Assembly (NCBI GenBank): GCA_039809385.1
Contig: JBDHUY010000001.1
Coordinates: 64,001-128,000, forward strand
DNA: 64,000 bases
Direction: 5' to 3'
DNA from: Candidatus Altimarinota bacterium
GTDB lineage: Bacteria; Patescibacteriota; Gracilibacteria; JBDHUY01
Made by a program: the position numbers and the translations under genes. This document shows, piece by piece, positions 61,337 through 63,607 of the stretch (the first letter of the stretch is position 1; every line of letters begins with the position of its first letter). The notes beneath the pieces are model-generated. The model searched no databases and was not told the DNA's origin. It saw only the letters and a list, made by a program, of their open reading frames with translations.

Positions 61337-62200
61337 CTAGTTGCCATATTCGCAACTATTGTTTTCCGTTTCGGGAAATGCCGGAATAACTCCGTTCGCT
61401 CTTTTTATAGTAAGCTCGGCGTCATCAAAGTTCACCATACAATCGCGGTTGGTGTCGGAGAGCGATTCCAGAGTAGCCTGGGTCAAACTGATATCGTCAA
61501 AAACTCCCTGGGTCTGCATGGCGACCAGATAGGCCGGCCAATTCTGAAAATATTTATACATGACGATCGCATAGGCGTCATCACTTGCAATACGCCCGTC
61601 ACGATTAACATCCCCTATGGGGTTTTCGGGATCGACCGCCACTCCCGGGGCATGGGAGGCAGCGGCGCCGGAAGCCGCGGAATTGACAGAACGGGTATTG
61701 ACGGTTAAAGCATTGCTGACCTCCTGCAACCCGTTCTCTCCATCCTGTTTCAACACTCCAAACGTATAACGAGTGTTCGGCTGCAGTTCTGTAGCGATAA
61801 CCCGTTTCGAGTCGTTTACATTTTCGGTGATACCGGTATGGTCCGCATGTATATCTTCAAACAGGTTCCACGATTCGATCATCTGCCGGGTCGTCAGTTC
61901 TCCGGTATAGTATTTGATATCATAACCGACCTGTCCGGTGTAGGATCCCGCCGGCGGTGCGGGTTCGTCCCACAACAGTTCTACATTTCGATTACCCACT
62001 TGGCCCGCCGACAGATTGAGCGTATCTTGCGAAATATTGATGAGATCTGATTTCAAGCGCGAACCGGTATCGTTGACATAGCCGACCACCAGCACCGAGA
62101 CAATGAAGATCCCGGCAGCCAGCAGCAGATTAAGCCGGTGTTCTTGCCAGAAAGAAGCGGGTGGAATCGTATTTTTGGGAATGTTTTGAGACATATCCAT
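61337..62200 (-). CDS. membrane-anchored fn3 plus dockerin-like protein
   Basis: N-terminal TM; ELQPNTRYTFGV; GDVNRDGRIASDD and DTNRDCMVNFDD EF-hand-like pair. Confidence 0.75.
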   Translation of the reverse strand: MDMSQNIPKNTIPPASFWQEHRLNLLLAAGIFIVSVLVVGYVNDTGSRLKSDLINISQDTLNLSAGQVGNRNVELLWDEPAPPAGSYTGQVGYDIKYYTGELTTRQMIESWNLFEDIHADHTGITENVNDSKRVIATELQPNTRYTFGVLKQDGENGLQEVSNALTVNTRSVNSAASGAAASHAPGVAVDPENPIGDVNRDGRIASDDAYAIVMYKYFQNWPAYLVAMQTQGVFDDISLTQATLESLSDTNRDCMVNFDDAELTIKRANGVIPAFPETENNSCEYGN

Positions 62201-62268
62201 TTTGTTTGTTTCTCATTATTATACTCCAAATGCGTCAAATGCGCGAACGATATTTTTTTTGAAAATTA

Positions 62269-62297
62269 TTGCAATTTTTATATTTCAAGAGTAACGT
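62269..62297 (+). promoter_or_regulatory. candidate sigma70 promoter for the leader-kinase transcript
   Basis: TTGCAA-N17-TAACGT. Confidence 0.5.
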
Positions 62298-62316
62298 TTA
62301 AGAGAACATTGAATTT

Positions 62317-62412
62317 ATGAAAAACACATCCCTCCTTTCCGCCAACTTTTTTGGATACTACTTCTACTTCTTTTTTACGAAGAGGGGTTTTTGTTACGCG
62401 GATCAAGGATAG
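62317..62412 (+). CDS. Phe/Tyr-rich attenuator leader peptide (31 aa, not in ORF track)
   Basis: MKNTSLLSANFFGYYFYFFFTKRGFCYADQG*; 9 of 10 consecutive codons are Phe or Tyr. Confidence 0.8.
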   Translation: MKNTSLLSANFFGYYFYFFFTKRGFCYADQG

Positions 62413-62478
62413 ACATTAAAAACATACCGCAACAATAAGAAAAACCTCTCTTCACCACTTACGAAGAGAGGTTTTTTT
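62379..62478 (+). terminator. attenuator: antiterminator (62379-62392 with 62440-62453) versus terminator (62440-62453 with 62463-62476, plus U tract)
   Basis: GAAGAGGGGTTTTT / AAAAACCTCTCTTC / GAAGAGAGGTTTTTTT. Confidence 0.82.
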
Positions 62479-62509
62479 ATACTTTATTTCTGCCATAAAA
62501 ACATATATT

Positions 62510-63442
62510 ATGAAGGTTCTGGGAATAGGCGAAGTCGTCGCCGATAACGTTTACAGGGTCAACGACATGTCGCTCACCGATCAACAGCCCTGCTCACAGC
62601 AGGTACAACACTGCCTGGGCGGTCCGGTTCCGATCGCGCTTATACTTCTGGCCCGTCTGGGAGTGAACTGTACATTACTTGCCAGTATCGGGACAGACGA
62701 ACAGGGCGAAGACCTTAAAAAAGAACTCCGGCACGAACGCGTTCATCTCCTGACACAGCACCAACCCGCTACCAAATCGAATATTATTCTGGTGGATGAA
62801 AAGACGGGAAACCGCAAAAAGATGCGTGGGTCGGTGACCCATGCCCCTTTACGAAACCTGAAAACCGAGTTCCTTCGACAATTCGACGTCATCCTGATTG
62901 ATCGTCATGAGCCGCAAGCTTTGTACGAAGTTCTACAAAAAAAAGCTCCGCACACCCGGCTGGTCATCGACCCTTCAACCGAAATATCCGCCCTGACTCT
63001 GGACATGCTCAAACACGCCGAGTATCCGATTGTACCGATTGAAGGGGTTCTGAAAATAGACGGAGGCTCCACGCTCTTTGAAAAGATCAAGGCACTCTAT
63101 GCCATGAGCCGCAAAGAGATCATCGTTACCGCCGGCAGCCTGGGCACGATTCTCTACGACGGCAAAACTATCGAGATCATTCCCAGCATGGATATCCGTG
63201 CACAGGACACCAACGGGGCCGGCGATGTGTTCCGGGCCGGGGTTATTTACGGTGTTTTACGCAAATGGGATATCCGCAAAAGCATCAAAATGGGCAACGT
63301 GGTAGCCGCCCTGCAATGCTTAAAACCGGGCAACAGTACAGCCATTCCCACCAAACGGGAGATCATCCGCGCTGCAAAAAGCTTACGTCCCAAGCACATC
63401 GAGATTCGTCATCTGGAAGCATACTGTCAGGAGCTGGGATAG
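62510..63442 (+). CDS. PfkB/ribokinase-family carbohydrate kinase
   Basis: GGPVPIALILLARLG, VTAGSLG, DTNGAGDVFRAG. Confidence 0.92.
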   Translation: MKVLGIGEVVADNVYRVNDMSLTDQQPCSQQVQHCLGGPVPIALILLARLGVNCTLLASIGTDEQGEDLKKELRHERVHLLTQHQPATKSNIILVDEKTGNRKKMRGSVTHAPLRNLKTEFLRQFDVILIDRHEPQALYEVLQKKAPHTRLVIDPSTEISALTLDMLKHAEYPIVPIEGVLKIDGGSTLFEKIKALYAMSRKEIIVTAGSLGTILYDGKTIEIIPSMDIRAQDTNGAGDVFRAGVIYGVLRKWDIRKSIKMGNVVAALQCLKPGNSTAIPTKREIIRAAKSLRPKHIEIRHLEAYCQELG

Positions 63443-63444
63443 CA

Positions 63445-63607
63445 AGCTATCAGCAAACAGCGGTCAGCTGACAGCGGGAACAGACAGGGAGCAAGCTATC
63501 GGCGAGCAGCGGTCAGTAGAAACTGTGAAATTGATAGAAACTTATTGAAATTGGTTGCCCTTCCTGCAGTCACTCTGACTCTGAGCGGAGCGAAGAGGAA
63601 GAGTCTC
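63445..63607 (+). repeat. composite repeat stack homologous to 28192-28310 and 52530-52605
   Basis: agctatcagcaaacagcggtcagc...gaaattggttgcccttcctgcagtcactctgactctgagcggagcgaagaggaagagtctc. Confidence 0.75.

Follow-up and report, generated by a model that had tools for sequence, protein, structure and literature searches.

Why should a kinase gene be preceded by a short open reading frame (ORF) filled with phenylalanine and tyrosine codons and then by a transcription terminator? The locus that raises this question lies in a window of 64 kb, which is the whole stretch of DNA analysed here, within a genome of 1.87 Mb. A sequence-only reading of the window had described the genome as CPR-like, and the nearest named relatives of its DnaK are indeed Gracilibacteria, Peregrinibacteria, and "Patescibacteria group" bacteria. 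Cells of the Patescibacteria (CPR) are commonly portrayed as reduced and dependent on a host, and to our knowledge almost nothing is known about their gene regulation. On the evidence presented below, the element is very likely a ribosome-mediated (leader-peptide) Phe/Tyr transcription attenuator ahead of a PfkB kinase, and its control probably extends to the Phe/Tyr biosynthesis genes behind the kinase. Identical DNA is found in contigs of four DNA runs from four studies of activated sludge and wastewater; these copies show no differences and so hold no strain variation. The sequencing runs listed as containing the stretch include no RNA run.

Leader ORF and alternative pairings

The intergenic region 62201-62509 separates a minus-strand fn3 and dockerin gene (61337-62200) from the plus-strand PfkB kinase gene (62510-63442). 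Because the gene before it is on the minus strand, a terminator in this region has no possible plus-strand owner upstream. All elements described here are on the plus strand. The leader ORF (62317-62412) consists of 31 codons with a TAG stop (62410-62412) and encodes MKNTSLLSANFFGYYFYFFFTKRGFCYADQG. Its codons 11-20 (62347-62376) specify FFGYYFYFFF, which amounts to six Phe, three Tyr, and one Gly; read from the sequence, they are TTT twice, GGA, TAC twice, TTC, TAC, TTC, and TTT twice. Phe or Tyr is therefore encoded by nine of the ten codons, and Trp is absent from the run of the window copy.

Four RNA segments accompany the ORF. Segment 1 (62360-62370) lies within the Phe/Tyr codons. Segment 2, here called A (62379-62392), is the 5' arm of an antiterminator and a near-copy of segment 4. 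Segment 3, or B (62440-62453), is common to the antiterminator, which it forms with A, and to the terminator, which it forms with segment 4, or C (62463-62476). A U7 tract (62472-62478) overlaps the end of C and completes the intrinsic terminator. All 14 positions of A pair with B, a single G-U among them; the pairing of B with C is likewise complete (14 of 14) and entirely Watson-Crick, giving a 14-bp terminator stem with a 9-base loop. The sequence-only reading had listed the ORF, the FFGYYFYFFF run, A, B, C, and the U7 tract, all of which were confirmed base for base, and both of its claimed pairings were reproduced.

The leader stop lies 17 nt beyond A and 25 nt before B, and the kinase ATG follows the end of the U7 tract after 31 nt, so there is no room for a separate kinase promoter. 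Moreover, the 18-mer shared by A and C, with one mismatch, occurs at these two sites only in the 1.87 Mb genome. The 18-mer has no match on the reverse strand, and the reversed control pattern has no match either.

Candidate promoter and message start

A candidate promoter, TTGCAA-N17-TAACGT (62269-62297, plus strand), had been proposed upstream of the ORF. The two boxes (62269-62274 and 62292-62297, read from the sequence) and the 17 bases between them are present as claimed; the promoter is weak, though, and it was missed by a consensus scan because TAACGT agrees with TATAAT at 3 of 6 positions only. The same scan gave the terminator on the minus strand only, and in our reading the plus-strand terminator was passed over since its 9-base loop exceeds the limit of 8 set in the scan. 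TTGCAA-N17-TAACGT is the best promoter candidate in the window, though a weak one. It would give a 5' UTR of about 12 nt without a Shine-Dalgarno motif.

The wider family gives a clearer picture of the start. Among the 41 related leaders, the usual pattern is a set of canonical boxes, TTGACA and TATAAT, that ends 9-16 nt upstream of the ATG, and none of these 41 leaders has a Shine-Dalgarno-like motif ahead of the ORF. The sequences suggest that the messages of the family have very short or no 5' leaders. Additionally, no Shine-Dalgarno motif was seen before the kinase ATG in 62479-62509.

Folding, ribosome footprint and proposed mechanism

The predicted structure of the region is more stable than expected by chance: its fold has -42.1 kcal/mol, shuffled sequences average -26.65 (z = -4.13), and none of 200 shuffles folds as well. 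This minimum-energy fold holds the B:C terminator together with a hairpin between segment 1 (62360-62370) and A. When A:B pairing is forced, the fold reaches -37.0 kcal/mol and contains an inner antiterminator part (62394-62438), which includes the leader stop and is built from the helices 62394-62396/62436-62438 and 62398-62401/62427-62430. The second of these helices is the inner gcgg/ccgc pairing noted earlier. The earlier account of the structure was correct for A:B and B:C and left the 1:2 hairpin undescribed. With this hairpin added, the complete 1:2, 2:3, and 3:4 set of a classical attenuator is present.

The position of a translating ribosome was modelled with a footprint of 30 nt. With a stall at codons 11-16 all 14 bases of A are free in the model, and 13 are free with a stall at codon 17. 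For stalls at codons 11-17, the transcript before C is predicted to fold with 13-14 A:B pairs, of which 10 remain for a stall at codon 18. A ribosome on codons 19-29 covers A and leaves zero A:B pairs. Accordingly, the modelled ribosome masks segment 1 and spares segment 2 at codons 11-17 and ceases to do so at codons 18-20, where A is increasingly covered. The claim that full translation masks A stands for a ribosome in transit over codons 19-29. It does not stand for a ribosome at the stop codon of the window copy, as all 14 bases of A are then outside the 30-nt footprint and segment 2 is left uncovered. Since the stop is 17 nt past A, the window copy is unlike trpL in that A would be masked in transit and not at termination. 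In several relatives the leader stop abuts A.

From these elements we infer a sequence of events whose stalling, timing, and response to Phe and Tyr would be as follows. Transcription would begin shortly upstream of the leader ATG, and a ribosome would start on the message without delay. Under a shortage of charged Phe-tRNA or Tyr-tRNA, this ribosome would stall on codons 11-17, cover segment 1, and leave A free. The free A would capture B directly upon its synthesis, C would be left without a partner, and the polymerase would continue into the kinase gene. When Phe and Tyr are plentiful, the ribosome would pass over A (codons 19-29) during the synthesis of B and C; with A covered, B would pair with C and transcription would end at the U7 tract. 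A transcript free of ribosomes and extending up to B is predicted to favour A:B, at -26.2 kcal/mol compared with -21.1 kcal/mol just before B is made. Low basal read-through would therefore need a kinetically trapped 1:2 hairpin.

Recurrence in relatives

A search with the kinase at E <= 1e-20 gave 114 relatives, the closest two being 85% and 65% identical and the others at most 53%. Scans of genome and metagenome collections gave about 50 loci with kinases 30-50% identical, most of them titled Patescibacteria, Saccharimonadales, Levyibacteriota, Woesebacteria, Dojkabacteria, or Microgenomates. The one genome of the same family in the genome set has no kinase match, and the best non-self kinase among the genomes of 40 relatives is 24% identical.

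The sequence-only reading had pointed to the DNA upstream of orthologous kinases as the place where F/Y-rich ORFs with covarying stems should recur, and they were found there. An automated scan covered the 44 orthologous kinase loci for which 215 nt or more of upstream DNA was available; four others had too little. Its criteria were an ATG ORF 17-35 codons long, a stretch of 8 residues in it of which 4 or more are aromatic, and a terminator 21-45 nt after the stop. The device combines an ATG-initiated ORF that carries an F/Y/W run with a 1:2 hairpin and a terminator, the 3' arm of which recurs in A. It was found at 39 of the 44 loci, a count that takes in the window locus and one exact duplicate locus. 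A 40th locus (L040) was confirmed by a covariance model. At locus L030, two copies stand in tandem roughly 1 kb upstream, in front of earlier genes, and three of the loci scanned (L103, L037, and L111) have no device.

Across the family, the distance from stop to B is 21-45 nt with a median of 27 nt (25 nt in the window copy), and typical peptides are MNQQTQSYWFYFTSQPGRL..., MKNLLCNQNYFYFFTTTS, and MNNTIIRINFFFYFYPG. The window copy shares the architecture and context, including the aromatic run, the A copied from C, a stop within 21-45 nt of B, and the orthologous PfkB gene next in line. The family also amends one earlier claim. Dual Phe and Tyr sensing had been proposed from the codons of the window copy, which are as described, while the runs of the wider family mix Phe, Tyr, and Trp.

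Two further features of the related loci may be recorded. Two tandem aromatic leaders, each with its own terminator, lie ahead of the kinase or operon at L112, L113, L115, L040, and L030. In many relatives (for example L104:2492-2839), the leader and kinase come after the gene for ribosomal protein L20 (Pfam Ribosomal_L20). This resembles the gene order of Escherichia coli, in which rplT is followed by the pheM leader and pheST; the window leader does not adjoin rplT.

Covariation of the stems

The terminator arms differ by lineage (CCTCCC, CCCCGC, CCGCC, CTTCTC, and CCTCTCTTC in the window), and the copy in A shifts along with them. The duplex of a leader with its own B has a mean energy of -11.7 kcal/mol, compared with -6.9 kcal/mol when the B comes from a different core (864 pairings). 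For 28 of the 41 leaders, B prefers its own leader over every leader of a different core; the converse, in which the own B of a leader beats every B of a different core, holds for only 15 of 41. Furthermore, the structure that RNAalifold predicts for 18 relatives consists of exactly the 1:2 hairpin and the terminator.

A covariance model (R1) was built from the alignment of these 18 relatives. Run on 52 sources, it gave 46 matches at E <= 1, of which two on the minus strand look spurious. The alignment derived from R1 is fitted to 1:2 and 3:4 and not to A:B. In the fitted helices 91.2% of 600 cells pair and 13 of 14 pairs are compensated, in an alignment that is biased to this structure by construction. 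The A:B helix, to which the alignment was not fitted, pairs in 77.6% of 286 cells, compared with 57.5-63.5% when the partner is slid; both partners have changed in 6 of its 7 pairs, and its score is reached by 1 of 500 shuffles.

The window copy itself scores 22.6 bits against R1 (E = 0.5 over 289,010 bases), compared with 21-145 bits for the relatives, and whole-genome runs of R1 do not recover it. Its stems are longer and different. Owing to this weak score, the membership of the window copy rests on architecture and context and not on a significant model score.

Evidence bearing on translation of the leader

The 41 related leaders also bear on whether the ORF is read as codons. The T-rich tract was located in each by its position before A, with the frame ignored. 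The aromatic-richest frame is opened by an ATG ORF in 39 of 41 leaders, compared with 6 of the 82 other frames; in the two leaders that do not agree, the ORFs end before A. The run codons are dominated by TTT (120), TAT (42), TAC (40), TGG (27), and TTC (21), which make up 250 of 268. The bases A and G are placed in the runs just where Tyr or Trp results, a pattern that U-richness alone would not predict.

These counts speak against the reading that the element is an RNA-only or protein-mediated switch in the style of a riboswitch, PyrR, or TRAP, with an ORF that is incidental to T-rich sequence. Alternative hairpins need no translation by themselves, stop codons are rare in T- and C-rich sequence, and a PyrR site is matched weakly (24.3 bits against a gathering score of 54). 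Against this, the aromatic frame is the one opened by ATG, nearly all run codons specify Phe, Tyr, or Trp, and no conserved sequence that could form an aptamer precedes the run. In addition, no Rfam family reaches its gathering score in the window element or at 20 related loci, where a single tRNA was the only hit; a scan of the 16-kb cluster likewise gave one tRNA only. T-box, riboswitch, and PyrR-site candidates accordingly find no support in the Rfam search, and we regard such a switch as very unlikely. For the Rfam family Phe_leader (RF01859), the plus-strand score is 20.9 bits and the gathering score 55, so the window element is not a member of it.

The residues behind the run vary with the RNA stems (TSQPGR, TTLNAG, TRIAG, and TKRG), and only the aromatic run is conserved. 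This bears on another reading, in which the ORF is an independent gene for a small hydrophobic protein that is closed by a terminator of its own and has no part in controlling the kinase. A peptide core of about 16 residues that is aromatic and hydrophobic, and a strong terminator after the ORF, would suit such a gene. However, the later residues of the peptide track the RNA stems, the duplication of C in A would have no role, and the kinase ATG follows the terminator by about 19 nt (family median; 31 nt in the window) with no promoter between. The small-protein reading is hence very improbable. Attenuation of the pheL/trpL type, as proposed from the window sequence, is instead backed by the conservation and covariation at 39 of the 44 loci, by the frame test, and by the downstream genes.

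The kinase and the aromatic gene cluster

The first structural gene past the attenuator (62510-63442, plus strand) encodes a PfkB-family kinase of 310 aa (Pfam PfkB, E = 4.8e-27). The NCBIfam model that it matches best is ribokinase (91 bits; cut-off 300), and it is an equivalog of no named NCBIfam kinase. A sugar kinase had appeared to be an odd target for a Phe/Tyr sensor. The oddness disappears beyond the end of the window, as the kinase is the conserved first gene of aromatic clusters. In relatives, the gene next after the kinase encodes DAHP synthase at 26 of 33 loci, class II aldolase at two, and DHQ synthase at one, and other downstream genes encode DHQ synthase, chorismate mutase-prephenate dehydratase (CM-PDT), and prephenate dehydrogenase (PDH). 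In the genome studied here, the plus strand just beyond the window continues from the kinase to class II fructose-bisphosphate aldolase, DAHP synthase, chorismate mutase with prephenate dehydrogenase (TyrA-like), prephenate dehydratase with ACT (PheA-like), and an aminotransferase. A Phe/Tyr leader thus heads a Phe/Tyr cluster, which makes physiological sense and removes the puzzle of the sugar kinase.

The downstream genes also weigh against sensing of the pyrBI type, by which low UTP would pause the polymerase in a U-rich stretch, so that the ribosome closes the distance and prevents the terminator from forming. U is indeed abundant in the control run, and the PfkB family includes nucleoside kinases, with NCBIfam nucleoside and ribose-1-phosphate kinase models matching at 54-71 bits, far below their cut-offs. 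However, the genes behind the leader belong to aromatic amino acid and not to pyrimidine metabolism, the leader ORF ends 25 nt before B and does not enter the terminator, a dedicated antiterminator is present and covarying, and Tyr and Trp codons break the U runs in frame. Almost no credence is given to NTP sensing here, and the Phe/Tyr attenuator is preferred.

How far the control by this attenuator reaches is a matter of the gaps between the cluster genes, which measure 620, 227, 486, 286, and 216 nt. Given gaps of this size, the attenuator may govern the kinase alone, and polymerases reading through past the kinase would be needed to carry the control further. A scan of the 620-nt gap after the kinase against Rfam gave no match. 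A 40-nt direct repeat (window 63441-63529), 78% identical with its two copies 49 nt apart, starts at the kinase stop and reaches into this gap.

The regulated pathway looks incomplete in this genome. Pfam searches of the 95%-complete genome found no DHQ synthase, chorismate synthase, or shikimate dehydrogenase, and its single EPSP_synthase-family hit may be MurA. Among 22 kinase-bearing genomes (loci L020-L051), nine have chorismate synthase, which was not found in the genome studied here. Many kinase-bearing organisms may hold parts of the pathway only, or their bins may be incomplete. A role of the PfkB kinase as a substitute for shikimate kinase is not favoured, as a canonical shikimate kinase accompanies chorismate synthase in all nine.

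A bolder view is that leader-peptide attenuation from near-leaderless mRNAs is general in Patescibacteria and that the PfkB kinase is an unrecognised feeder step for DAHP synthase; we consider this view rather doubtful. Its first half draws on aromatic leaders seen in several classes, a Met-codon leader in the present genome, and candidates elsewhere that are rich in Trp or Leu. One possibility is that the kinase phosphorylates sedoheptulose 7-phosphate and that the neighbouring class II aldolase frees erythrose 4-phosphate. The order of kinase, aldolase, and DAHP synthase in the present genome fits the idea of a feeder step.

Comparison with known systems

Several described leaders resemble the window element in part. 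In Corynebacterium glutamicum, a Phe-Tyr-Phe leader peptide, aroR, is described ahead of an operon with DAHP synthase (aroF), and stalling on it raises transcription (PMC11802643). By that account, which summarises Neshat et al. 2014, supply of Tyr is without effect. The C. glutamicum and window leaders, as far as the former is described there, both mix Phe and Tyr before a DAHP synthase operon. The C. glutamicum leader, by contrast, has Phe-Tyr-Phe only and belongs to another phylum, whereas the window has a 10-codon run and a PfkB kinase as first gene; the likeness drawn here is one of description.

E. coli pheL-pheA, in the outline given by PMC3082878, shares with the window a short ORF with a Phe run, the 1:2/2:3/3:4 logic, and an intrinsic terminator before a Phe biosynthesis gene. 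Compared with pheL as outlined there, the window leader is longer (31 codons), mixes in Tyr, and has its stop beyond segment 2. The E. coli leaders of pheM-pheST and trpL-trpEDCBA are presented in PMC11802643 as classical attenuators that act by codons of aromatic amino acids; their target genes differ from those of the window, and the likeness is one of architecture. Additionally, leaderless polycysteine short ORFs are reported to act as attenuators in mycobacteria (bioRxiv 10.1101/834739). Like the window leader, these ORFs are placed by that report at or near the mRNA 5' end, lack a Shine-Dalgarno motif, and sense an amino acid for the operon behind them. The mycobacterial system responds to cysteine and belongs to Actinobacteria, while the near-leaderless start of the window message is suggested by promoter-like boxes. 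The sequence-only reading knew of no such attenuator in Patescibacteria, and literature searches likewise found no report of leader-peptide attenuators in Patescibacteria/CPR.

Spread and significance

The reach of the device was surveyed with R1 in two sets of genomes. In the same class, 4 of 151 genomes match at E <= 0.01, and three of these have F/Y ORFs with A copied from C. In a sample of the phylum, 12 of 151 genomes match, six or seven of them with aromatic runs, one with a Trp-rich ORF, and one with a Leu-rich ORF. Judged by these leader codons, the same architecture appears to serve other amino acid operons as well.

The Trp-rich (…YHWWY…) and Leu-rich (…LLLLGL…) leaders are at L190 and L194. 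A second leader of the same design, with Met codons, counts in favour of the attenuator reading and is present in the own genome outside the window (L183:14196-14249, minus strand, which is C1:140196-140249 of the own contig). Its ORF MMMAIMMMMRLLRRQMV has seven Met in the first nine codons and is followed by a terminator, nine bases of whose 3' arm are copied within the ORF. The gene downstream of it encodes 396 aa; its only match is a weak one, 19.5 bits to a SAM hydrolase family whose cut-off is 470.

The evidence supports the recurrence of the Phe/Tyr device in many Patescibacteria as a real phenomenon of a well-known kind. A conserved attenuator of this type would mean that some Patescibacteria make, or partly make, aromatic amino acids and that they tune this synthesis by the charging of tRNA. 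It would also mean that transcription and translation must be closely coupled in such cells. Moreover, it points to a place in aromatic metabolism for a PfkB kinase that is uncharacterised. The RNA model, together with clear rules for the device, offers a handle for finding other amino acid operons that are controlled in this way. The mechanism is that of the textbook, and what is gained is its reach across a little-understood phylum and not a new principle.
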